In this document: positions 1 to 35,544 of the stretch, piece by piece
Layout of the letters: each line of letters begins with the position of its first letter
Numbering within the stretch: the stretch's first letter is position 1
IMG/VR virus record: IMGVR_UViG_3300049215_000193
Location: 1 to 35,544 of that record
Source: a virus
Length of the DNA: 35,544 nucleotides
Direction: 5' to 3' (one strand)
Translations under genes and position numbers: made by a program
Notes under the pieces: generated by a model
What the model saw: only the letters and a program-made list of their open reading frames with translations
What the model was told of the DNA's origin: nothing
Databases searched by the model: none

Positions 1-127
1 GGAAAGGAAGTGTATGAAAAGTATATTATGTATATTGGGGTTGATGATGACTCTCAGGGGAATGAATGACAAGAGAGACATATCCCCACTAAAACCTAAG
101 CTATATTCGGGCAGTGTAAAGAAAATA
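1..127. repeat. Left copy of an exact 127-bp direct terminal repeat (identical to 35418..35544). It marks a closed or circularly permuted genome of 35,417-bp unit length.
   Basis: Read directly: ggaaaggaagtgtatgaaaag...gcagtgtaaagaaaata occurs at both ends in the same orientation with no mismatch seen. Confidence 0.95.
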
Positions 128-5897: not shown

Positions 5898-7684
5898 GCT
5901 AATTTCCCTTTGAGTTCATCTAGTTCTTTTCTGAGTTTCTGGATTTCATGCAGCAAAATAGCCGGCATATCATGATACCTTACGTTATCCGGACGCCCCT
6001 CTTCATCAAGATTCACTATTTCAGGCATTATCGCGTATACTTCTTCAGCTATTAGACCATATTGCTTACGCTTAGAAGTATCTGTCTTATAGGAAAAATT
6101 AACCGGACGAAGCTTCATCACGAATGTATCATCCATATCCTGAATGTTATCTTTGTACCTGGCAGAAGAAGATATAGTTCCTAGCTGTCCTTCATCAGAT
6201 ATGAGCAATGGAGAAGTGGTAAGAGAATCTGTAGTTACTCCATATGAACCAGCAATGAACGCTCTACTTTGCTCTCCTTGTCCAGTTCCGGTCGTTCCTA
6301 ATCTAATAGTATTACTTTCAGATACAACGCCTGAATTACTAATACATATGTTACTTATTTCAGTCCCTGCATATGCATTACCTGATTGCCTTCCAATCGC
6401 AATATTATATCTTCCATCAATAAGGCTATTTAATGCACCAAATCCAACGGCCACATTTGAACCATTAGCTCCACCAGACAATGATGCCATAGCTCCATTA
6501 CCAAATGCAGAGTTAAAGGCAGAAGTGGTACTGACAGTAAGGGCACCGTATCCTACTGCAGTATTTTGATTACCCGTTGTAATGGAGGATCCAGCAACTC
6601 CACCTATTAAAGTATTTTGAAGTGCTGATGTCATCATTTGACCGGCATTATATCCAATTGCTGTATTGTAATCACCAGTATCAACCATTTGCAATACGTT
6701 TGCTCCTACAGCAACATTTTGGCCTCCTGTTGTGACAGAATTTAAAGTGAAAGCTCCAACAGAGGTATTATTTTGAGCGGTAAAAGTTCCATTACCTGCA
6801 GACAAACCTATTAAAGTATTTCTATCACCCACACTATCAGTGGTATTAAGACTTACTGTTGATCCGGTTGCAGAGAATGAAACCGTTGCCCCTGCATTCG
6901 TCAAACCATCAAATGTTATAGGGTTTCCAGTCGCAGATCCCGTATCTCCATTGATAGTTACTCCTCCTGATGGGATAGTCGCAGATCCAAGTTGACCGGT
7001 AGTTGTATCAACAGTTACCATTTCACTGTTCGCAGTTACAACTCCGGCTATTCCAGCAACATAACAGGTATTCTGCTGGCCTAATCCGCCACCTTGCGAA
7101 CCAATACGAATAGCATTGGATTCACCCGTAGTTCCTCCTGCCGCAATACATATATTGCTTGATTCAGAAGAAGTGTAGTTAAACCCAGAGAATCGACCAT
7201 AGCAGGTATTATAAGATCCATCAAGAAGCTGATTCAAGGACTGTCGTCCTGCAGCTGTATTATCACCAGAACCACCTGCCAGTGTGTTAAGCGCTCCCCC
7301 ACCAACAGCGGTATTGAAATCGGTTGCTGTATTATTTGAAAGGGTGTTAGTTCCGAATGCGGTATTTGCTAATCCAGTCGTATTCTGAACACATGCATTA
7401 AGACCAAAGGCACAGTTTTGTACTCCAGAAGAGACATTTGCGAGCGCATTTTGCCCAACCCCAACGTTCTGATTAGCATCAGTCATATCAAGAGTTATGG
7501 TACCCGCAGCAGAATCAAAACGAACAGTTCCCCCACTTTCCATGTCAGTACCAACAAAATCAAATACGGTACCAACTGAAGATCCCGTATTACCATTAAT
7601 AGTAATATTCGATCCTCCACCCCCACCACCTCCTCCTGCAGATCCCGCTTGACTCATACAGAGCATTAATTTTTTGAATATCAT
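5894..7684 (-). CDS. Tail fibre/spike with Gly8 linker, two repeat/neck modules and a C-terminal peptidase S74-type intramolecular chaperone domain
   Basis: 596 aa with a TAAGGAG SD. The C-terminus reads GQLGTISSSARYKDNI...YGLIAEEV...DNVRYHDM...coiled coil, which matches the self-cleaving chaperone of endosialidase-type fibres. Confidence 0.85.
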   Translation of the reverse strand: MIFKKLMLCMSQAGSAGGGGGGGGSNITINGNTGSSVGTVFDFVGTDMESGGTVRFDSAAGTITLDMTDANQNVGVGQNALANVSSGVQNCAFGLNACVQNTTGLANTAFGTNTLSNNTATDFNTAVGGGALNTLAGGSGDNTAAGRQSLNQLLDGSYNTCYGRFSGFNYTSSESSNICIAAGGTTGESNAIRIGSQGGGLGQQNTCYVAGIAGVVTANSEMVTVDTTTGQLGSATIPSGGVTINGDTGSATGNPITFDGLTNAGATVSFSATGSTVSLNTTDSVGDRNTLIGLSAGNGTFTAQNNTSVGAFTLNSVTTGGQNVAVGANVLQMVDTGDYNTAIGYNAGQMMTSALQNTLIGGVAGSSITTGNQNTAVGYGALTVSTTSAFNSAFGNGAMASLSGGANGSNVAVGFGALNSLIDGRYNIAIGRQSGNAYAGTEISNICISNSGVVSESNTIRLGTTGTGQGEQSRAFIAGSYGVTTDSLTTSPLLISDEGQLGTISSSARYKDNIQDMDDTFVMKLRPVNFSYKTDTSKRKQYGLIAEEVYAIMPEIVNLDEEGRPDNVRYHDMPAILLHEIQKLRKELDELKGKLA

Positions 7685-7693
7685 ACTCTCTCC

Positions 7694-8038
7694 TTAAAAT
7701 GTAGATCCAAAAATAGTAGTAAGATACACTGTTCCGGATGTTAACGCCGCATCAGACTTCACGTAAAAACGGTCACCTTCTGCAAAAAGAAATACTCCAC
7801 CCATATCGCTTCTATTAGCCGTAGCATCATAGAGCACAAATCCTCCAGCCGGTATGACATCATGATCATCAATACCATTGACCGATATGAGAACTTCACC
7901 ATCAGTAGTATTAACGAGCTTTATAATTCGGCATGGGAAGTTTAATGGAGAATCTATAAGCGCATATGTTCCAGAAATACTTCCAAAAGGAATCGATCTT
8001 AGCCCATCAAAACGAGCTCTTACTGCATTTGAGTACAT
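7694..8038 (-). CDS. Small beta-rich protein (paralogue of 8048..8377), probably virion or fibre-associated
   Basis: 114 aa with a TAAGGAG junction. CRIIKLVNTTDGEVLISVNGIDDHDVIPAGG parallels CSILRINSSSSTLVTISYDGRTDHEVVLPNQ in the neighbouring gene. Confidence 0.6.
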   Translation of the reverse strand: MYSNAVRARFDGLRSIPFGSISGTYALIDSPLNFPCRIIKLVNTTDGEVLISVNGIDDHDVIPAGGFVLYDATANRSDMGGVFLFAEGDRFYVKSDAALTSGTVYLTTIFGSTF

Positions 8039-10151: not shown

Positions 10152-10319
10152 ATGGAACAAAAAAATATTTGTATAGATATGAACTGTGGATGGAGATGCG
10201 AAAGAAAAATGCATGGATTTGGAACAGTGATTTTTGCATTCATGTTTCCTTATGTTGCAATATTTTTTGCATTAATAAAATATTTCTATATTCAACAACC
10301 TACTATCAAATCAAATTAG
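10152..10319 (+). CDS. 55-aa Cys-rich N-terminus plus TM peptide (below the ORF-track cutoff)
   Basis: Translated by hand: MEQKNICIDMNCGWRCERKMHGFGTVIFAFMFPYVAIFFALIKYFYIQQPTIKSN. GAAGAGG lies upstream. Its 3' end overlaps the convergent gene by 4 nt. Confidence 0.4.
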   Translation: MEQKNICIDMNCGWRCERKMHGFGTVIFAFMFPYVAIFFALIKYFYIQQPTIKSN

Positions 10320-11611
10320 GACAAAAATAGCTTGGCGATACCATCAAGATCGGTCTTAATAGCATCTTGAACTTGCTGTTCAAGATCTAAAGGCCTTTTG
10401 CCGCCATTTTCCTTAATGATTTTTCTTGCTGCATTCGCCTCTATTTGTGATGCGTCATTCAAAGCCTTTAAGTTATGTATAACGCGCTTCTTTCCCGAAT
10501 CCGTTTGCATCAAAGTTGGGACTGTTTGCATGAAAGCCCTCAAGTCAGCGTCAGTAAGCCGAGATCCAAAGTATTGCTTAGCATTTTTCACAAAGTCAGC
10601 GGATAATTTCTCAAACTCTTCAACATCTGGGTTTCTTCCCCTTATTACAGATTTAACAGCACCTGCAAGTGGGGAAACAAGACTGCCCAATATACCACCA
10701 CCTATTCCTCCAATCACAGTTCCGATTGCTGGAACTACTGATCCAATAGCTGCGCCTGCTGCTGCTCCGCCTCCTGGGCCTGCAAGACCTGAATCTTCTA
10801 TTTTATTTAAAAAAGTCCACAGCCCTGAATTAGGAAGATTTCCTTTTTCGATAAGCTTGGTCATGCGGTCTAAACGCAGGTTGTTTTCCTTAGAAGCTTT
10901 TTGAGATTTCAATACAGTGTCTGCATATTCTTTTGTTTCACGCATAGCTTCTTTTTGTTCTTCTCGAGCGATTTTTCTATCTTCGGCTGCTTGCTTCAGT
11001 TCTAGAGATTTTTCTCTCAATTCTATTTGTCTCTCTTGAGCTTTTTGCATCGGGGATTTGAATAAATCTTGAAGAGCTTGAGTATTTTGAGCTGTGCGAG
11101 GTTGTTCTGTTACGACATTTCCTGTAGGAGTTTGTTTTATCTGCGGAATTTCCTGGAAAGGTGCTACTTGAGGCTGCTGTTGCAACCCTGCAAAGTTAGA
11201 AAAAGGCAAAGCTTGTCTGAGATTCGCCATCTGCTCTAAAGTAAGAGCTGGTTGTACCGCTCTTTGACCTGCTTGTTCAGCTCCTTGCATTTGAGATGCC
11301 GCTCCGAGACCCTCAATAAGCCTTTGACTTGCCGAAGGCATAGCAAGTGATTCTTGTGGCGCTTGAAGTTGAGACAATGCACCCAGATTCTGGAATGCTG
11401 CTTTTTGAAGATCTGCAGGAAGGGCTGAAATAAACTGACTTGCTTGAGGATTTATTCCTACTTGTTGCAATCCACGTTGGAGGTTCGATTGCTGTAGTTG
11501 TTGCATCTTTTGTTGTGCCAATAGATCTAAGGCATTCCCTAATGATTGACTTACACCAGACCCAAGTGCTGATCCTAGGCTTGGTAATACTGAATTTAAA
11601 TTTATTGCCAT
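10316..11611 (-). CDS. Gln-rich, coiled-coil protein with a Gly/Ala-rich hydrophobic segment; putative internal virion/ejection protein
   Basis: 431 aa with a TAAGGAG junction. It has Q-rich low complexity, an EEQKE coiled-coil stretch and GLAGPGGGAAAGAAIGSVVPAIGTVIGGIGGGILGSLV. The function is inferred from composition and position. Confidence 0.5.
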   Translation of the reverse strand: MAINLNSVLPSLGSALGSGVSQSLGNALDLLAQQKMQQLQQSNLQRGLQQVGINPQASQFISALPADLQKAAFQNLGALSQLQAPQESLAMPSASQRLIEGLGAASQMQGAEQAGQRAVQPALTLEQMANLRQALPFSNFAGLQQQPQVAPFQEIPQIKQTPTGNVVTEQPRTAQNTQALQDLFKSPMQKAQERQIELREKSLELKQAAEDRKIAREEQKEAMRETKEYADTVLKSQKASKENNLRLDRMTKLIEKGNLPNSGLWTFLNKIEDSGLAGPGGGAAAGAAIGSVVPAIGTVIGGIGGGILGSLVSPLAGAVKSVIRGRNPDVEEFEKLSADFVKNAKQYFGSRLTDADLRAFMQTVPTLMQTDSGKKRVIHNLKALNDASQIEANAARKIIKENGGKRPLDLEQQVQDAIKTDLDGIAKLFLS

Positions 11612-11620
11612 GATTACTCC

Positions 11621-12166
11621 TTATGAACCTTGAGCTAACATGCTTAAAAGTGAACTAATAGCGTTTCCTGCTTCACTTGTACCACCTGTTGCGTAGGCTG
11701 CACCTGCACGCAATCCCGCCTGAGCAAGTTGAGGTAGAATTTGTTGTAAGAATCCACCTTGCTGTGGTGTTTGTATATTAAGATATGGGTCTGTTAGTCC
11801 TAAACCGAGTGCCTGGAGCCCTTGTCCACGAGACTGAAGACCATATTGCGCCTGTTGGGCTGCTAAATTACCTTCAAGACCAACTCCGGCGGATCCTAAA
11901 AGTTGTGCGAATGCTGGCGAGCTTTGCGCTCCTGCCCCCATGGAAGTAAATCGTTCTGCAAGAGATGGGACTGTTATCTCATTAAATTGCCTACGTGCTT
12001 GATCCGCAATAGGAGCAAATCCTTGAGTTGGATTTTGAAATTGTTGCATTCCACCCTGCAAAATCTGTAATATAGCTTGCATTTGCTGAGGGTTGAAGCG
12101 ATTTGGTTGTTGCAATTGTGCTGGGGTTCCTGCGAAGAATGAACCTATAGATTCACCGATAGCCAT
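11621..12166 (-). CDS. Gln/Gly/Ala-rich protein; putative internal virion protein
   Basis: 181 aa with AAGGAG upstream. Low-complexity Q/G/A composition, adjacent to 10316..11611. Confidence 0.5.
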   Translation of the reverse strand: MAIGESIGSFFAGTPAQLQQPNRFNPQQMQAILQILQGGMQQFQNPTQGFAPIADQARRQFNEITVPSLAERFTSMGAGAQSSPAFAQLLGSAGVGLEGNLAAQQAQYGLQSRGQGLQALGLGLTDPYLNIQTPQQGGFLQQILPQLAQAGLRAGAAYATGGTSEAGNAISSLLSMLAQGS

Positions 12167-12615: not shown

Positions 12616-12646
12616 ACGGGCCCTTAACGGGGTCCGTTTTTATTTA
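12616..12646. terminator. Hairpin plus T tract between convergent genes
   Basis: acgggccc-ttaac-ggggtccgt followed by tttttattt. The stem has one mismatch. Confidence 0.45.
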
Positions 12647-13380
12647 GGGCGATTACCTAAGTACTCTTCATATCGAGCTCTTATCTTACGAATCTCATTA
12701 ATGACTCGATGGTATTCAGTTTTGGGAAGATCAGCCAAAGTCTCAAGGCCAAAAAGAGATAGAATATCGGACGTTATATTTTCATATCCATCAAGCTCCA
12801 TCATGAGCTGATTGTATTCATTTCGAGTAATGGTTTCAATGACGATGCGAGCGTCCTTCTTGGTGGGCTTTCGAGCCTCTTTGGCCATATTATCCAACAC
12901 CTGCTCTTCACCATTGTCATCAAAGAAAAGGGGATCATTACTTGAAGGAGCTATGCCAAGCAACATAAGTGCATGCATACGCTTGTGATATTCATAGGTA
13001 TTACCAGTTTGTCGATCAGTCTTTCCAGAAAATACCCGAGCTGTTGACGAAATCCACTGCCCAGATTCATGACCGAGCATTGATTTAAGCAGTGCAGCAC
13101 CTGAGCCTTCATCAAGAAGATCGATGTACTGATAAAAAGAAAGGCCATTGGCAGAAAGCGCCTCTTTTGTAGCGTCTCGAATAGCAGAAAGATTAGCGAA
13201 TTTGCCGCCAGCGGATTCTTCATTGGGAATTAAGTTTTTGTAAGAGCCTTGCGCTTTTGCTAATGCACCCATGAGTTGATCGATCTTTTCTGATCGCTGT
13301 TCCTTTGTGGATGCTTTGGCTTTAGAAAGATCGGACACCATCTCAATGAGGTCGCGAAGCATCTGTTTTATCTCTTGCAT
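12640..13380 (-). CDS. ERF-family single-strand annealing protein, second copy
   Basis: Start set at MQEIKQ (GGAG 5 nt upstream). KFANLSAIRDATKEALSANGLS...LGHESGQWIS...GNTYEYHKRMHALMLLGIAP...FFDDNGEE follows the ERF core pattern. The C-terminal domain also parallels 33073..33669. Confidence 0.65.
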   Translation of the reverse strand: MQEIKQMLRDLIEMVSDLSKAKASTKEQRSEKIDQLMGALAKAQGSYKNLIPNEESAGGKFANLSAIRDATKEALSANGLSFYQYIDLLDEGSGAALLKSMLGHESGQWISSTARVFSGKTDRQTGNTYEYHKRMHALMLLGIAPSSNDPLFFDDNGEEQVLDNMAKEARKPTKKDARIVIETITRNEYNQLMMELDGYENITSDILSLFGLETLADLPKTEYHRVINEIRKIRARYEEYLGNRPK

Positions 13381-13456
13381 ACATTCTCCGTACAAAAAAG
13401 GCAGACGAACCAATCAGTTTTAGGGACTAGAAGGGGGAGGCTCGCCTGCCAATGTC

Positions 13457-19730: not shown

Positions 19731-20675
19731 TCAAGGTAAGGTTGCGCGAAGGTTGTAGATCCAAAGATCGTTCAAGATTCTTGGAACCTCAGCAAACACA
19801 TAACCTAATGTTACGTTTTGGAAAAGAGGATCACTGTAAACAGGAGGTCTGTAGAGGAAGCGTGCTGAGTAGTTATCTTGCTCAACACATGCTAACGCTT
19901 CCATACCTTGGATGAAGATGTTGTACACATCGTTACCGAGGTTAGATGCATTAGGAGATACAGAACCTACAGAGCTGAGCATGAAGCGAACGTTGTTGTA
20001 GCTTCCCCACTCAGAACGTACTGTTTGGTTTTGATTTGGATAGTTCCATTTCGCAATGAAACCATTCAAGTTGTTCAAGCTTGAAGACAAGTTGGTGTGT
20101 CCAAGACCGATATAACAGTCACGAACTGGACCTGTACCAAAACGATCTTCACCTTCTTGAGAATCGAGGATCATCCAAGCATCGTTTGAAAGCAACGCTT
20201 GAGTAACATCGTCGATGTCAGAAGCTGAAAGGTTGGTAGGGTTGTCACCATTTGTTCCACCAGTACAGTTCACGAATGATGCAGTTGATGCAAGCATATC
20301 GCGCGTTAATTGGTCTTCAGTCATACGAAGAGAAAGACCGAGTAACTGAGCTGTTTCTGAAAGAACCGGATCTTGGTTTTGGAGTGTTACTTGTTGGTTG
20401 ATAGCAACATATTGTCCATAGAAAGACATTGTCGCATCAATATCAACAGCAGTTAACGGAGTCGCAGGAGGCGTTGCACCAGATGGCCCGAGAGGGATTG
20501 GAGCAGTCGGTAGACGATCATAACGTCTCATACGGAGGGTTCTACCACCTTTAGCAGGTAAGCGTTTCGGTTCAGCTGCAAGCTTATGGATAAGATTTGG
20601 AGTTCTTACCGATAAGAGAACGTCATCAAAATGCTGCTGCACTGGTGCAGGTAGAAGTGTAGTAGTAGTAATCAT
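19731..20675 (-). CDS. Major capsid protein (HK97 fold)
   Basis: Start set at ATG 20675 (AAGGTG upstream; the ORF track uses GTG 20684). LPAKGGRTLRMRRYDRL...PLGPSGATPP...ATMSFYGQYVAINQQV...DPVLSETAQLLG matches the conserved N-terminal pattern of HK97-like capsid proteins. The resemblance to the N4 gp56-type family is from recollection. Confidence 0.8.
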   Translation of the reverse strand: MITTTTLLPAPVQQHFDDVLLSVRTPNLIHKLAAEPKRLPAKGGRTLRMRRYDRLPTAPIPLGPSGATPPATPLTAVDIDATMSFYGQYVAINQQVTLQNQDPVLSETAQLLGLSLRMTEDQLTRDMLASTASFVNCTGGTNGDNPTNLSASDIDDVTQALLSNDAWMILDSQEGEDRFGTGPVRDCYIGLGHTNLSSSLNNLNGFIAKWNYPNQNQTVRSEWGSYNNVRFMLSSVGSVSPNASNLGNDVYNIFIQGMEALACVEQDNYSARFLYRPPVYSDPLFQNVTLGYVFAEVPRILNDLWIYNLRATLP

Positions 20676-20779
20676 AACTAACACCTTTTGAAAAACGAAC
20701 GGATATGACTTGAGCGTGACGAAGGCTCCATACGTCGAAGGGAGGCAGGCTGTCGAAACCTAGATACGACAAATGCGGG

Positions 20780-20797
20780 GACGAATCGCGATACGTC
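20780..20797. promoter_or_regulatory. Near-perfect 18-bp palindrome GACGtATCGCGATtCGTC just downstream of the TATAAT box in the capsid-gene leader
   Basis: Read directly: 16 of 18 positions are self-complementary, and it starts 4 nt downstream of the -10 element. Confidence 0.4.
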
Positions 20798-20801
20798 TGC
20801 G

Positions 20802-20834
20802 ATTATACTACAATAGTAGGATTACTTTTGGCAA
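20802..20834 (-). promoter_or_regulatory. Candidate late promoter for the capsid operon (consensus TATAAT; TTGCCA -35-like hexamer)
   Basis: Minus strand: TTGCCA-N18-TAGTAT overlapping a perfect TATAAT (plus-strand 20802..20807). The spacing to TATAAT itself is 21 nt, so -35 usage is uncertain. Confidence 0.4.
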
Positions 20835-20894
20835 GACAAAATCATTTGATATCTTACTAACAAAATAAAATTCTAACATTGCAACGGAGAATAT

Positions 20895-21200
20895 ATGGAA
20901 AATGATTTCCCAGAAGAAGTATTACAATTTATGAATGACACTTATAATCCTATGGGATTCTTAGAATATTTAACCGAAGAAGAAAAGCGTAAATATCGCA
21001 GAGAAGAGAAAAATCTTAATAAACAACTACAAGAGCTCAAGGAAGACTACAATGAAATAGCAGGAGAAAGATTAAGCTGCCAGATTCTCCTGGGTCATAT
21101 CAAAGAAAAAATTGGTGAAAATAAATTCACAGAAATGACAGTGTATTTAAAATCATTGAACAGTATTCATCTTCAAAAGATATACACATTATTAAAGTAA
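20895..21200 (+). CDS. Hypothetical acidic coiled-coil protein (opposite-strand moron)
   Basis: 101 aa with GGAG 6 nt upstream, followed by the hairpin at 21218..21245. Confidence 0.55.
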   Translation: MENDFPEEVLQFMNDTYNPMGFLEYLTEEEKRKYRREEKNLNKQLQELKEDYNEIAGERLSCQILLGHIKEKIGENKFTEMTVYLKSLNSIHLQKIYTLLK

Positions 21201-21217
21201 TAAATTTCAATCGAAGA

Positions 21218-21245
21218 AGGCCCTAGAATATTACTCTTCTAGAGC
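21218..21245. terminator. Hairpin (ggccctagaa-tattactc-ttctagagcc, 9/10 bp) between the convergent plus-strand ORF and the tRNA
   Basis: Read directly. It has a T-rich tail on the minus strand (ttcttcgattg). Confidence 0.4.
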
Positions 21246-21269
21246 CAATCAAAGAAGATGAGATCGAGT

Positions 21270-21346
21270 TGGATGCGGAGGCTGGATTTGAACCAACGAC
21301 CTCAGGGTTATGAGCCCTACGAGCTACCAGACTGCTCTACTCCGCG
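21270..21346 (-). tRNA. tRNA-Met (anticodon CAU) with bacterial initiator (fMet) signatures and an encoded CCA
   Basis: Reverse complement: CGCGGAG-UA-GAGC-AGUCUGGUA-GCUC-G-UAGGG-CUCAUAA-CCCUG-AGGUC-GUUGG-UUCAAAU-CCAGC-CUCCGCA-U-CCA. It forms a full cloverleaf with a C1xA72 mismatch, A11:U24 and three G:C pairs closing the anticodon stem. Confidence 0.9.
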
Positions 21347-21362
21347 ATGTAAGAGCACTATT

Positions 21363-21722
21363 CTATAATGAATTGTTAATATTTTCTACTATTACTCCCA
21401 TAGTCATGAAAGCGTGTTGAAATACACCAAATGACGGGGTTGATTTAATCTTCCTCCAAAAATGAAGGGCGATCGGTAAGAATTCACGGAGTGCATCATT
21501 CATCTGATTCTTGCATTCTTCTTTATGCTCTGGAGGCAATTGATAATCAAGCAACCTTATAGTGGTATATGTTAACATTGCCAGCTTCTCATAAATAGAT
21601 TTGTCAAAATCATCGAGAAGATGATTATTATCCATGATGATCTTCTGAATACACTCGGAAGACTTATACCATGGCTGTAATTTTTCTTGATTCCACGGAT
21701 CAATACTTGTCTCTTTATTCAT
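21363..21722 (-). CDS. Hypothetical protein
   Basis: 119 aa, tightly packed after 21725..21913. Confidence 0.5.
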   Translation of the reverse strand: MNKETSIDPWNQEKLQPWYKSSECIQKIIMDNNHLLDDFDKSIYEKLAMLTYTTIRLLDYQLPPEHKEECKNQMNDALREFLPIALHFWRKIKSTPSFGVFQHAFMTMGVIVENINNSL

Positions 21723-21724
21723 AA

Positions 21725-21913
21725 TTATTCAAAATATTTCTTTTCTATAAAATGATCAATAATTAAAGATGCATCAGTATTCAGAATTTGGGATATAAAA
21801 TTTAATATGGGATCCTGAATAGAATTTGTGATTGCCCAGTTAAGCTGCAATCCTTTACCATTTACATGAATATATAATAATTTGTTTTGTTTATCTAAAG
21901 TAGATCGAATCAT
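21725..21913 (-). CDS. Hypothetical small protein (paralogue of 22071..22331)
   Basis: 62 aa. PILNFISQILNTDASLIIDHF parallels ELINRVSQVLKLDSEVIINHF. Confidence 0.55.
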   Translation of the reverse strand: MIRSTLDKQNKLLYIHVNGKGLQLNWAITNSIQDPILNFISQILNTDASLIIDHFIEKKYFE

Positions 21914-22081
21914 TTATTCCTCTACTTTATCAATTTTCTTATTTTCTCTTTCACAAAGGCACCGCATATCTGAGATATTATTCTCCTTTTGATGATATTG
22001 AGATACCACTAGCCACGGACACAAAAGTTGATGGGCTAACTTTTCTTGTAATTCTTTAGACAAAGGTGAATTATTGATCAT
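21914..22081 (-). CDS. 55-aa Cys-containing small protein (below the ORF-track cutoff)
   Basis: Translated by hand: MINNSPLSKELQEKLAHQLLCPWLVVSQYHQKENNISDMRCLCERENKKIDKVEE. The ATG overlaps the end of the upstream gene and the stop abuts the next ATG, so the ORF exactly fills the apparent gap. Confidence 0.5.
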   Translation of the reverse strand: MINNSPLSKELQEKLAHQLLCPWLVVSQYHQKENNISDMRCLCERENKKIDKVEE

Positions 22082-22331
22082 GCCTTTTAGTCCTTTTACT
22101 GTTTCTAAAATGATTTATAATTACCTCGGAATCTAACTTTAATACCTGCGATACTCTATTTATTAATTCTTTTTCTAAAGGGTCTGCCAATTTTTCTATA
22201 AGCAATACTGACCCCTCCAACACGAATTGTGGGGAATATATAGCCAGATATTTTACAGAATTTTTAGTGTACAAATATGATTCAATAACATGGCCATATC
22301 TCAATTTTCTATTGCTAAATTTAACTATCAT
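22071..22331 (-). CDS. Hypothetical small protein (paralogue of 21725..21913)
   Basis: 86 aa with the shared C-terminal motif described for 21725..21913. Confidence 0.55.
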   Translation of the reverse strand: MIVKFSNRKLRYGHVIESYLYTKNSVKYLAIYSPQFVLEGSVLLIEKLADPLEKELINRVSQVLKLDSEVIINHFRNSKRTKRHDQ

Positions 22332-22340
22332 TTTTGAAAT

Positions 22341-22631
22341 CTATTCTCTGGTAGCCTTATGCTTATCAATAAACTGTTGCCATTCTTGCTCTTTAAAACA
22401 GCAAACATCACATTGCCGCATCGGAGATGGGAAGTTTATCCAACCAATGATCTCTGATACTTTAATGCGTGTTCCGTCTTCATAGGTAATGTATTCCTTG
22501 GGGTCTTGGCCTTCTGAAAAGAATATATGCAGATCAGAAGTGAAAAATGGCTTCACTTTCTTACCATCAGTTACGAGGACATACGTGTCGCGCAAGGGAT
22601 GCTTCTCTTTAATAGATATCCATGTTGACAT
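22341..22631 (-). CDS. DUF551-like protein
   Basis: 96 aa. The N-terminal WISIKEKHPL...YVLV and the later GWINFPSP fit the DUF551 pattern as I recall it (WISVKDRLP...VLV...WMPLPEPP). Confidence 0.55.
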   Translation of the reverse strand: MSTWISIKEKHPLRDTYVLVTDGKKVKPFFTSDLHIFFSEGQDPKEYITYEDGTRIKVSEIIGWINFPSPMRQCDVCCFKEQEWQQFIDKHKATRE

Positions 22632-22650
22632 AATTGTCTCCTGAAAGTTG

Positions 22651-22671
22651 AACCCCGGGGCTACCGGGGTT
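22651..22671. terminator. Perfect 8-bp GC-rich hairpin (aaccccgg-ggcta-ccggggtt) after the scaffold-like gene
   Basis: Read directly. The T-rich tail is present on the plus strand only, so its role on the minus-strand transcript may be RNA stability or partial termination. Confidence 0.4.
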
Positions 22672-22676
22672 TGTTA

Positions 22677-23468
22677 TTATCTATATCGTTTGGCGTCAGA
22701 TACCATTTTCCTGAGCTGTGCCTTTCTATCCTCTGAAAGAGTTCGGCGGTCGTAATCACCAAGAGAACTCAAAGGGGAAGTAGATTGCTGTGATTGTGGT
22801 GCTGCACTTGCTGTTCTTGGCTTTGATCTATTTTCTTCTATGCGAGCCGTTTGTTCTGGCGCATGAACTTCCGATAGGCCATAGTTTTTTATGAGCGTGT
22901 AGGCCAATTTTGCGCGACTATAATCATCAGGAACGTGTCCGATAGCCTGATATTCGTCAGGATAAATAGCTGCCAGGTTCTTAACCGAGTCTTCAGTCAC
23001 GATGTTTTGGAAATCAGGCATAGCAGTTTGGATCTTACTCATGGCCTGCTGTTGTTGTTGATACTGCTGCTGACGCTTGAGCTCTTCGCGCAATGCTTTG
23101 ATTTCTCGAGTTACTGTTTGAGAGTATTTCTTAATGTGACGACCCTCTATTATATCATCGTCATTCACACTGAAGTCTTCTTCAACAACAGGAACAGACT
23201 GAGGAGTACTCTGATGCTGAGGTTGCTGTACTCTTTGAGCTTCTAACCTCTCGCGTTCTGCTAATGCGCGCTCAGCTTTTTCAGCACGCTCACGCAATAC
23301 TCGCATGTTATATTCACGGGTATCATTTTTCTTTTCAACTACTTTTGGCTCTTCTTGAGGCTCTCCAACCACTTGTTCTGCAACAACCTGAGGTTCTTCT
23401 TGAACTTGCTCTATGGGCTTTTGCGTATTAGGATCCAATTGCGTGTATACCAAAGGCTCTCTATCCAT
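22677..23468 (-). CDS. Scaffolding-like protein (acidic/Gln-rich coiled coil)
   Basis: 263 aa with a TAAGGAG junction. It contains E/Q/P-rich repeats and long heptad-like stretches and lies between portal and capsid. The function is inferred from composition and position. Confidence 0.5.
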   Translation of the reverse strand: MDREPLVYTQLDPNTQKPIEQVQEEPQVVAEQVVGEPQEEPKVVEKKNDTREYNMRVLRERAEKAERALAERERLEAQRVQQPQHQSTPQSVPVVEEDFSVNDDDIIEGRHIKKYSQTVTREIKALREELKRQQQYQQQQQAMSKIQTAMPDFQNIVTEDSVKNLAAIYPDEYQAIGHVPDDYSRAKLAYTLIKNYGLSEVHAPEQTARIEENRSKPRTASAAPQSQQSTSPLSSLGDYDRRTLSEDRKAQLRKMVSDAKRYR

Positions 23469-33072: not shown

Positions 33073-33669
33073 TTAGGTTCTTTTGTTTTTATTAATGTAA
33101 CCCATTACAATTCCATACTTCGCTTCACTCAGCTCATCTATGGACTTAATATTGTTAAATTTCAGAATGTTTTGGTAAAGCTCGGAACCATTAGAACAAT
33201 CTTTGAGTGCGCGTTTTATTTCATCAAGGTATATCTGGCGAGTAGATATGTGCTTTTCTTCTTCCTCACCGTCATCGTCATCCGGGCATAGTCCACAAAG
33301 CGCCAATATCGCATACTTACGCATATAAGTTTGAGCAGCACCTTTGGCTTGGTTTCCATCTTTTTCACTTTCCATATAGCGCTGATCCTCGATCCATTGA
33401 CCAGAGGGGCAGTGGGTAAGGCGGCTTATGAGAATCTGTATGCTGTCCTTAGCCATAGCTCCTTGGGAGATGGCTATTTTTTGATCATAGAGCGCATCTT
33501 CTACTGCACCATAGATATCTAGTAAAGTTGCGTATTTATAACGCTGGTGGGCATTTGTTCCACTAAAACCGGTTGATTTAAATGACCGACGAGCTGTCGC
33601 AAGAGCCCATAACACTTCTCTAACATCTTCAGACATTAAAGAGCAGTTTGATTTGGCATATTCCATCAT
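33073..33669 (-). CDS. ERF-family single-strand annealing protein, first copy
   Basis: 198 aa; ATGA overlap with the upstream gene and a GGGAGG SD. YKYATLLDIYGAVEDAL...LTHCPSGQWIE...GAAQTYMRKYAILALCGLCPDDDDGEEEE is a classic ERF core. Confidence 0.8.
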   Translation of the reverse strand: MMEYAKSNCSLMSEDVREVLWALATARRSFKSTGFSGTNAHQRYKYATLLDIYGAVEDALYDQKIAISQGAMAKDSIQILISRLTHCPSGQWIEDQRYMESEKDGNQAKGAAQTYMRKYAILALCGLCPDDDDGEEEEKHISTRQIYLDEIKRALKDCSNGSELYQNILKFNNIKSIDELSEAKYGIVMGYINKNKRT

Positions 33670-34230: not shown

Positions 34231-34413
34231 GTGAAGAAAGAAAAAAGAATATGCAGCTGGTGCCGAGAAAGAATTGGAGAGCATTACTATAAGTCAGTGC
34301 TTGGAAGAAGAGATTACTACTGCTCCCCTCTTTGCTGCTTAAGACATTCAAGCCAACTTATGCCTATCCAGATGGTTGCGCTTGAAAAACCAATATTATG
34401 CTCCCATAAATAA
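34231..34413 (+). CDS. Small zinc-ribbon protein (C-X2-C-X19-C-X3-C)
   Basis: 60 aa with a GTG start after a purine-rich stretch. Contains CSWC...YCSPLC. Confidence 0.6.
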   Translation: MKKEKRICSWCRERIGEHYYKSVLGRRDYYCSPLCCLRHSSQLMPIQMVALEKPILCSHK

Positions 34414-34429
34414 CCCGAAGGAAAATAAA

Positions 34430-34960
34430 ATGGATTGCTTCTATGAATCTTTACTTTTTTTTCTCGTAAAATCAGTAGGATCAGCATTTATTATATTTGT
34501 CGCTATAGAATTTTTTAAAAAACTATTTATAAATCAATGCCATAAAGATGCAACTATATGCTTAGGATTGAAAAAAGCATTTATAGAAAACTTTTATCAA
34601 TTTCATAGATTCAAAAAGTTTATAGATGAAATAAATACCATCCATAAAGAGGGCCAAGGTTTTCTAGAAAATATTCATGGGCATCCTGGATTTAAAAAAG
34701 TAAAAACGGGAACTGATAAAAAACATTTGAAGAAATGGATGGATACATCAGATCATATGATAAGATTGAATTCCCCATTGCTCGATCTCATGAAAAGTGA
34801 AGCTATTTCATATAGTATTTACACCAATCCTCGAACATTGATAGAAGATGATATATGTAACATAGAAAATAAAATAGTATTTATGCGAGTTATGAGATCA
34901 ACAATGCTCGATTATATAGTATCTGATATAGATAAATCACAAGACATACACCAACACTAA
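34430..34960 (+). CDS. Hypothetical protein with an N-terminal TM helix
   Basis: Start set at MDCFYESLLFFLVKSVGSAFIIFVAIEFF with GAAGGAAA upstream; 176 aa. Confidence 0.55.
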   Translation: MDCFYESLLFFLVKSVGSAFIIFVAIEFFKKLFINQCHKDATICLGLKKAFIENFYQFHRFKKFIDEINTIHKEGQGFLENIHGHPGFKKVKTGTDKKHLKKWMDTSDHMIRLNSPLLDLMKSEAISYSIYTNPRTLIEDDICNIENKIVFMRVMRSTMLDYIVSDIDKSQDIHQH

Positions 34961-35135: not shown

Positions 35136-35486
35136 ATGGATTACATATTTGCTGCTATTTTTGCTACAGCCAGTGCAGCTTTTTTGCATCACGATACTGT
35201 CAAATCCCAAGAAATTAACTTTCATGTTTCTGTTAAGAAAGACGGGCAACCACAAAGGCCAATGATTACGTTTAGAGGAATCCCATTCGATCAGATATGC
35301 AACCTATGCTTAAATTATGCATGTCACTATCACATTCAAAATCATCAAACGCTATCATTGTGCGATTCACACGAGAAGGCATATACTAAATTCAAATCGT
35401 TAAACCAAAATTACGATGGAAAGGAAGTGTATGAAAAGTATATTATGTATATTGGGGTTGATGATGACTCTCAGGGGAATGAATGA
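35136..35486 (+). CDS. Small Cys/His zinc-ribbon protein (C-X2-C-X17-C-X2-H), paralogue of 14..298
   Basis: 116 aa with AAAGGA upstream. Hydrophobic N-terminus, then CNLC...LCDSH. It runs into the terminal repeat. Confidence 0.6.
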   Translation: MDYIFAAIFATASAAFLHHDTVKSQEINFHVSVKKDGQPQRPMITFRGIPFDQICNLCLNYACHYHIQNHQTLSLCDSHEKAYTKFKSLNQNYDGKEVYEKYIMYIGVDDDSQGNE

Positions 35487-35544
35487 CAAGAGAGACATAT
35501 CCCCACTAAAACCTAAGCTATATTCGGGCAGTGTAAAGAAAATA
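35418..35544. repeat. Right copy of the 127-bp direct terminal repeat
   Basis: Identical to 1..127. ORF 35136..35486 runs into it and ORF 14..298 starts inside it. Confidence 0.95.

Follow-up and report, generated by a model that had tools for sequence, protein, structure and literature searches.

Formylation of a bacterial initiator tRNA is described in one account as being directed chiefly by the mismatch between bases 1 and 72, with A73, G2:C71, C3:G70 and G4:C69 as minor determinants of the formyltransferase (PMC9976931). Further initiator features are a purine 11:pyrimidine 24 pair and three G:C pairs (PMC13433404), and a role of A11:U24 is also given in PMC9976931. The discriminator base A73 is moreover listed as a determinant of bacterial methionyl-tRNA synthetase (MetRS; PMC9976931, Table 1), for which the anticodon CAU dominates. 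When base 73 is U, the 3' end folds back, and this fold-back is recognised by the formylase (PMC4477674); U73 derivatives of the E. coli initiator are still able to start translation in vivo, their rates reaching up to 63% of wild type (PMC11822699). Initiator tRNA is also the substrate of an enteric VapC, which is reported to cut it between A38 and C39 (PMC4105405). The locus compared here with these systems is a U73 initiator-type tRNA gene in a phage genome. It lies within the window, by which the whole analysed stretch of 35,544 nucleotides is meant (IMG/VR virus record IMGVR_UViG_3300049215_000193).

Identity and determinants of the tRNA gene

A single tRNA was called in the 35,544-nt window by ARAGORN, which the first-pass annotation had suggested as a check: a tRNA-Met of 77 nt at 21270-21346, with the anticodon cat at position 35 of the tRNA. 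The gene lies on the minus strand, which had not been stated before. Rfam family RF00005 (tRNA) was matched at 21273-21346 on the same strand (a full-length match to model positions 1-71 of 71; 59.1 bits, gathering score 29, E=1.8e-10) and was the sole Rfam family matched in the window. The sequence, CGCGGAGUAGAGCAGUCUGGUAGCUCGUAGGGCUCAUAACCCUGAGGUCGUUGGUUCAAAUCCAGCCUCCGCAUCCA, contains all of the universal tRNA bases (U8, A14, G18G19, U33, G53, U54U55C56, A58 and C61), and the acceptor, D and T arms were recovered by RNAfold. Taken together, ARAGORN, Rfam, direct reading of the sequence and the closest relative identify a tRNA-Met(CAU) of the bacterial initiator type in which U73 precedes a gene-encoded CCA.

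In the Rfam alignment C1 faces A72, which is a non-standard pair, and the tRNA has no Watson-Crick pair at 1:72. The acceptor stem continues with G2:C71, C3:G70 and G4:C69; all three of these minor determinants of the formylase are kept, and the fourth is changed from A73 to U73. The purine 11:pyrimidine 24 pair is present as A11:U24 within the D stem G10 A11 G12 C13 / G22 C23 U24 C25. Three G:C pairs (G29-G30-G31:C39-C40-C41) close the anticodon stem, the loop of which is CUCAUAA, and the 3' end consists of the discriminator U73 followed by CCA. The clean 77-nt initiator-type cloverleaf with C1×A72, A11:U24, G29-31:C39-41, CAU and CCA that had been recognised in the first-pass annotation is therefore borne out by ARAGORN and Rfam alike, and its U73 is read both in the sequence and in the Rfam alignment.

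The likeness to E. coli tRNA-fMet that had been noted in the first-pass annotation was measured as 88.3% identity to E. coli initiator genes over all 77 nt. The matches listed were all annotated as tRNA-Met, and the median number of matching places per E. coli genome was four; these presumably correspond to metZWV and metY, the four initiator genes. A reading as tRNA-Ile2 or as elongator tRNA-Met was dropped on account of these four places, and a pseudogene reading was dropped because the gene is complete and conserved. The window tRNA and E. coli tRNA-fMet have in common C1×A72, G2:C71, C3:G70, G4:C69, A11:U24, G29-31:C39-41, the anticodon loop, the length and CCA. The window tRNA differs in having U73 (A73 in E. 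coli), A6:U67 (G6:C67 in E. coli) and A9, U27-A28/U42-G43 where E. coli has U27-C28/G42-A43, and a T stem with U50.G64 and U51:A63. Relative to the E. coli-type initiator sequence, differences were found only at positions 6, 9, 16, 28, 42, 43, 51, 63, 67 and 73.

Genome, neighbourhood and nearest kin

An exact direct repeat of 127 nt is present at the ends of the window (1-127 and 35418-35544), which leaves a unique length of 35,417 nt. The identical ends indicate a circularly closed or terminally redundant assembly, and thus a complete phage genome. A P22-type portal, a large terminase, a major head protein, tail-spike-like proteins, Erf and RusA are encoded, and the Pfam, PHROG and PADLOC matches of the window include no integrase. 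The statement that the tRNA is the only one of its genome and no codon-usage supplement holds, with a single ARAGORN call in a complete phage genome: since the sole tRNA is of the initiator type, codon usage does not explain the gene. As side observations, a Cpn10/GroES-like co-chaperonin is encoded at 520-801 on the plus strand (Pfam PF00166, E=1.9e-15), and two Erf-family ORFs (12640-13413 and 33073-33669, both on the minus strand) occur in this one 35-kb genome, one of them in the early region (Pfam ERF) and the other in the structural/tail block (PHROG Erf-like).

No nucleotide match to cultured phages was obtained, and the portal, terminase and capsid proteins are at most 24-40% identical to those of cultured phages of various Proteobacteria and of Bacillus. 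The portal belongs to an uncultured family (5348 proteins at E<=1e-50), in which no taxonomic names pointing to a host were found except for one 4.6-kb contig. Saccharimonadales was rejected as host, because the binning of this one portal contig is its sole basis and is not trusted. Host genes were likewise sought on a 165-kb contig that carries a relative (L386), and only phage genes were found in the stretch examined; our guess is that this contig is a concatemer. The same phage occurs in run ERR9963788, a Sphagnum peat-moss metagenome (PMC9584203), which is the only environmental clue.

The tRNA gene is situated in a lineage-specific accessory island of about 2 kb that extends from the scaffold-like gene to the major capsid gene (20685-22676, minus strand) and was delimited by GC content (34.9%, against 41.2% for the genome), by the size of the corresponding gap in relatives and by ORF searches. 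Its upstream border is a conserved gene for a 263-aa protein (22677-23468, minus strand), which is termed scaffold-like by position only; homologs at the same position are 26-40% identical in IMG/VR relatives and 65% identical in L388. The downstream border is the gene for the major capsid protein (19731-20684, minus strand; PHROG 1357 major head protein, 4.7e-21), which is 98.7% identical to its L388 homolog. Besides the tRNA, the island contains small ORFs on the minus strand at 22341-22631, 22071-22331, 21725-21913 and 21363-21722, and an ORF convergent to the tRNA at 20895-21200 on the plus strand. The gap between the scaffold-like and capsid genes is far shorter in most relatives (some 220-360 nt in L002, L010 and L013, for instance), and different inserts of 1.2-3.5 kb occupy the same junction in several others, so the tRNA sits at an insertion hot spot. 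No homologs of the island ORFs turned up in 80 relatives or in the surroundings of about 290 other initiator tRNAs, viral and bacterial, and searches of these ORFs against Pfam, PHROG and PADLOC gave nothing above threshold. A gene cassette travelling with the tRNA was dropped for these reasons.

Other tRNAs occur elsewhere in the family. A tRNA-Glu(UUC) is located 0.7-1.4 kb downstream of the portal gene in some relatives (L019 5692-5767, L026 5949-6023, L028 12851-12927, L029 5479-5553, L033 3883-3959 and L073 2620-2696), and four tRNAs (Pro, Ile-UAU and two Ser) are present in L045 at 7461-8007. The region downstream of the portal looks like a second tRNA insertion hot spot with different tRNA cargo.

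The tRNA begins 16 nt past the preceding ORF, on the late-gene strand. At 24 nt beyond its 3' end, and immediately beyond the stop codon of the convergent ORF 20895-21200(+), a 10-bp hairpin was predicted by RNAfold on the minus strand (21219-21246; GGCUCUAGAA-loop-UUCUAGGGCC with a U-rich tail; -20.2 kcal/mol, z=-2.9, 0/200 shuffles as stable). This hairpin probably terminates the transcript in which the tRNA comes last; it was missed by a simple terminator scan, owing to an imperfect T run. At the equivalent place of the closest relative (L383) another hairpin is present and is followed by UUUUCUCUU. We infer that a portal-to-scaffold transcription unit ends with the tRNA. A weak sigma-70-like promoter match (TAGAAA-17-TAGAAT, 9/12 in a consensus scan) was noted on the minus strand at 21360-21388 and ends 14 nt before the 5' end of the tRNA. 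Promoter-like sites are not enriched in the region (11 found, against 7.2 +/- 2.7 in shuffles), and this match is optional, since the tRNA could equally be co-transcribed with the upstream ORFs.

Two further observations concern the stretch towards the capsid gene. Between the tRNA terminator and the capsid leader, L383 contains a tandem duplication of a unit of about 40 nt (GTCGTATCGCGCCTCGGCAGCGCAGTCGTA...) at about 11545-11625, of which the window has a single related copy. A small hairpin is located in the window at 20711-20729 on the minus strand, about 25-45 nt ahead of the position at which the capsid gene begins (20684), and recurs at equivalent positions in L383, L010, L013, L021, L055, L060, L067 and L001. 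Its stem covaries among the relatives (GAGC/GCUC, GAGU/ACUC, GAAG/CUUC, CAGA/UCUG and UAGC/GCUA) around a loop core of approximately UCGUC, and it may be a late-gene regulatory element.

The same 77 nt, U73 included, were recovered in two further assemblies (Logan ERR9963788 and ENA ERZ27247776), which possibly derive from the same reads. The closest relative is contig JACCDR012314840.1, with 89% identity in the portal, 92% in the terminase and 98.7% in the capsid protein. It carries a tRNA-Met at the same site between the scaffold-like and capsid genes (L383 11370-11446), which differs from that of the window at two positions only (A6 to G and U67 to C) and has the same U73-CCA. The identical 77 nt in other assemblies, together with U73 in a separate related phage contig, show that U73 is no assembly error. 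The two differences convert A6:U67 into G6:C67 and thus compensate each other within a single pair of the acceptor stem. The accessory ORFs nearby have been exchanged between the two phages, and the scaffold-like proteins are only 65% identical. From the compensatory 6:67 change and the unchanged U73-CCA amid this turnover of neighbouring ORFs, the tRNA gene appears to be under structural (purifying) selection on its fold, as judged from one pair in two lineages; because only two phage lineages with the tRNA are available, the conservation argument amounts to one compensatory change. No tRNA was found at the scaffold-like/capsid junction in 41 more distant IMG/VR relatives that span the site (portal 50-72% identical), and its absence from 41/41 means that it is dispensable for the phage family.

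Base 73 in viral and bacterial initiator genes

A phage-borne initiator-type tRNA is not unusual. The window tRNA was matched by 315 GenBank phage records, and at least 120 IMG/VR contigs matched a generic initiator pattern with A73 (in 17 of the 120 A73 pattern matches listed, no full tRNA was called by ARAGORN). A complete scan of IMG/VR for initiator-type tRNAs with another base at this position gave 47 contigs, 37 with U73 and 10 with C73. Among these, 21 distinct U73 sequences were counted, six of them with C1×A72. A73 was present in 10/10 contigs that have the T arm and acceptor stem of the window tRNA, and in all 23 contigs, besides that of the closest relative, that have its distinctive anticodon arm. 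U73 is thus a minority state that is recurrent and not unique to the window phage. The gene is solitary in 40/47 of the non-A73 viral cases, compared with 47/120 among the A73 matches listed.

A modest association of U73 with a U1:A72 pair in place of the C1×A72 mismatch was observed as well: the pair was found in 10/21 unique viral U73 sequences, compared with 15/75 A73 sequences among the matches listed (Fisher p=0.02). Within the discriminator-variant class, U73 accompanies C1×A72 here and often U1:A72 elsewhere. In three IMG/VR contigs only the 3' part of a tRNA-fMet, from the anticodon loop to CCA, is present (L082 about 10290-10343, L083 about 315-368 and L086 about 11070-11123); these fragments abut unrelated AT-rich sequence, as expected of attP/attachment-site copies.

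The first-pass annotation had set U73 against an A73 of bacterial initiators. This is a majority rule only. Initiator-type genes without A73 were found in bacterial (GTDB) genomes in at least 120 matches. Among the matches listed, C73 recurs in genomes labelled Fimbriimonadaceae/Armatimonadota, in many Clostridia MAGs and in Myxococcales, and U73 occurs in Paraferrimonas, Psychrosphaera (three tandem copies), Bdellovibrionales, several Acinetobacter species, Magnetococcales, Ruminococcus and others. Native U73 genes lie at housekeeping loci in Paraferrimonas sp. SM1919 (ftsH-folP-tpiA-secG-tRNALeu-tRNAMet) and in two Bdellovibrionales MAGs (after scpB and the pseudouridine synthase gene rluB), so U73 is compatible with native initiator function. 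The discriminator of bacterial-type initiator tRNAs is accordingly not invariant, with U73 and C73 native in several lineages, and the U73 of the window may simply mirror that of a donor or host.

In Acinetobacter, the native copies at the secG-rimP-nusA locus have a U1.U72 mismatch and A73, and a third copy with U1:A72 and U73 adjoins xseA and Cro/CI-type and lysozyme genes. Two records named 'Acinetobacter phage MD-2021a' (CAKLQF020000006.1 and CAKLQF020000005.1) look like bacterial chromosome contigs; their gene content comprises secG-tRNALeu-tRNAMet x2-rimP-nusA-infB and xseA (L381 3000-3076, L382 3000-3242).

Possible roles and comparison with known systems

We favour, with a probability of roughly 0.55, the reading of the gene as a functional, horizontally acquired initiator tRNA, an accessory gene of one small lineage that would supplement the initiator pool, with a U73 that is tolerated and possibly inherited from the donor. 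The tRNA would be transcribed on the head-assembly strand, where it would come last in a unit closed by the hairpin ahead of the capsid gene, and the precursor would be matured by host RNase P and 3' exonucleases, CCA being encoded. Charging by host MetRS could then proceed via the CAU anticodon, and formylation by the host formyltransferase via C1×A72, G2:C71, C3:G70, G4:C69 and A11:U24. IF2 would set the tRNA in the 30S P site, with the help of the three G:C pairs that close the anticodon stem. The presumed effect is that the pool of initiator tRNA is raised or kept up during the synthesis of structural proteins. On this view U73 is a tolerated natural discriminator variant and no phage-specific device, and a donor lineage, cellular or viral, is its probable source.

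The existence of native bacterial U73 initiators and the published activity of U73 derivatives make this supplementation of the pool the most economical reading. An effect of U73 on recognition by MetRS or the formylase, as proposed in the first-pass annotation, is plausible from the determinant lists (PMC9976931), and with A73 as a MetRS determinant the charging of the window tRNA could be less efficient; any such effect is tempered by the U73 derivatives of the E. coli initiator, which still initiate (PMC11822699).

A role in counter-defence is unlikely, although it comes next in order. The phage copy would replace a host initiator tRNA that is inactivated in infection, and U73 would evade a factor acting at the acceptor end, for instance a nuclease that cuts there, a nucleotidyltransferase toxin or an acetyltransferase toxin like AtaT. 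That phage tRNAs evade tRNA-targeting defences is an established idea (PMC10264068), and AtaT, a toxin with Met-tRNAfMet as its target, presumably reads features of the acceptor helix (PMC7367177). The mostly solitary occurrence of the non-A73 viral copies, at the frequencies given above for the matches listed, and the contrast in Acinetobacter between the U73 copy beside Cro/CI-type and lysozyme genes and the A73 copies at secG-rimP-nusA also fit. No toxin is known, however, to discriminate tRNAfMet on base 73, and for ItaT A73 was judged to be no determinant (PMC7367177). Native U73 at bacterial housekeeping loci makes an arms race needless as an explanation. In a PADLOC scan of ten window ORFs, including all five island ORFs, no significant match was obtained; the sole match was a weak one to JAB (E=0.0028, ORF 34376-34960).

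The form of this idea raised first, escape from VapC, is unsupported, because the region of the cut site is unchanged: positions 29-41, A38/C39 included, are those of the E. coli-type initiator sequence, a reference that may not match the tRNA of the actual host. Escape substitutions in the anticodon loop or at the cleavage site, such as those in the phage tRNAs of van den Berg et al. 2023 (PMC10264068), were not found in comparison with this sequence, and the only documented nuclease of initiator tRNA would therefore not be evaded. A broader version, slightly less likely still, would make the discriminator-variant initiator tRNAs a mostly solitary class of phages and mobile elements that is insulated at the acceptor end from a host factor by which A73 initiators are inactivated or monitored in infection, with the window tRNA as a device for counter-defence or host takeover. 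If U73 did provide such insulation, counter-defence by phage tRNAs would take in the acceptor end in addition to the anticodon loop. If it did not, which is more likely, the value of the result lies in annotation and in showing that A73 holds for most initiators and not for all.

Equally doubtful as that broader version is a tRNA without use in translation, either as a neutral recent insert or as an RNase P site that, together with the hairpin, defines the 3' end of the upstream transcript. Such a role would suit an island that is low in GC, specific to the lineage and placed at a recombination hot spot, the lack of the tRNA in the 41 relatives spanning the site and its position right at the transcript boundary that precedes the capsid gene. 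A neutral insert, on the other hand, would not be expected to keep all of the initiator identity elements and to undergo a two-sided change of a stem pair amid gene turnover, and a processing signal needs neither an intact CAU anticodon arm nor an encoded CCA.

An altered identity is very improbable. U73 with G2:C71 and C3:G70 would shift the tRNA toward the set of CysRS and off MetRS, with poor methionylation or partial mischarging and non-canonical initiation as the outcome; the bacterial Cys set does comprise U73, G2-C71 and C3-G70 together with the GCA anticodon, and the Met set lists A73 (PMC9976931, Table 1). Priming with cysteine in engineered E. coli nevertheless needed the GCA anticodon besides U73 (PMC11822699), whereas the window tRNA has CAU, the main MetRS determinant, and the native U73 initiators of bacteria must be methionylated. 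The least credible origin is a remnant of integration (an attP-type sequence, or host DNA from imprecise excision beside a tRNA-fMet gene), for which the 3' halves in L082, L083 and L086 provide a precedent, but the window gene is of full length, is surrounded by structural genes of one operon in a circularly closed genome (127-nt terminal overlap) that has no integrase among its Pfam, PHROG and PADLOC matches, and is kept at the same internal site in the closest relative.

On the favoured reading as a supplementary initiator tRNA, the gene has counterparts of several kinds. The engineered U73 initiators of E. coli (the constructs of Pallanck and Schulman, and tRNAj, PMC11822699) share an initiator body with an A73-to-U73 change and are active in vivo; they carry the GCA anticodon and are charged with cysteine, whereas the window tRNA keeps CAU. 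The native U73 initiators of Paraferrimonas and Bdellovibrionales have C1×A72, the three G:C pairs, U73 and CCA in common with it. The tRNA of one Bdellovibrionales genome (L195) is identical to that of the window at 71/77 positions and to that of the L383 phage at 73/77, all differences from the latter being two compensatory pairs. These bacterial genes are chromosomal, and their lineages are at most candidates for the host or donor of the phage.

Among phages, the tRNA-Met genes of mycobacteriophages and of a Caulobacter phage are genes of the same kind. The tRNA-Met of Pseudomonas phage Y6 is identical to that of the window at 70/77 positions and differs from it in having A73. That of the Pectobacterium jumbo phage vB_PcaM_CBB shares U73 and CCA but, unlike the window tRNA, has a U1:A72 pair and only two G:C pairs next to the loop; it is part of a large tRNA array in a 378-kb genome, whereas the window tRNA is solitary in 35 kb and has the full initiator signature. 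The window thus offers a clean natural case of a solitary and, by its compensatory change, apparently structurally selected initiator tRNA in a small phage genome. A phage-encoded initiator tRNA is already known, and here it occurs with a minority, recurrent variant of the discriminator base.
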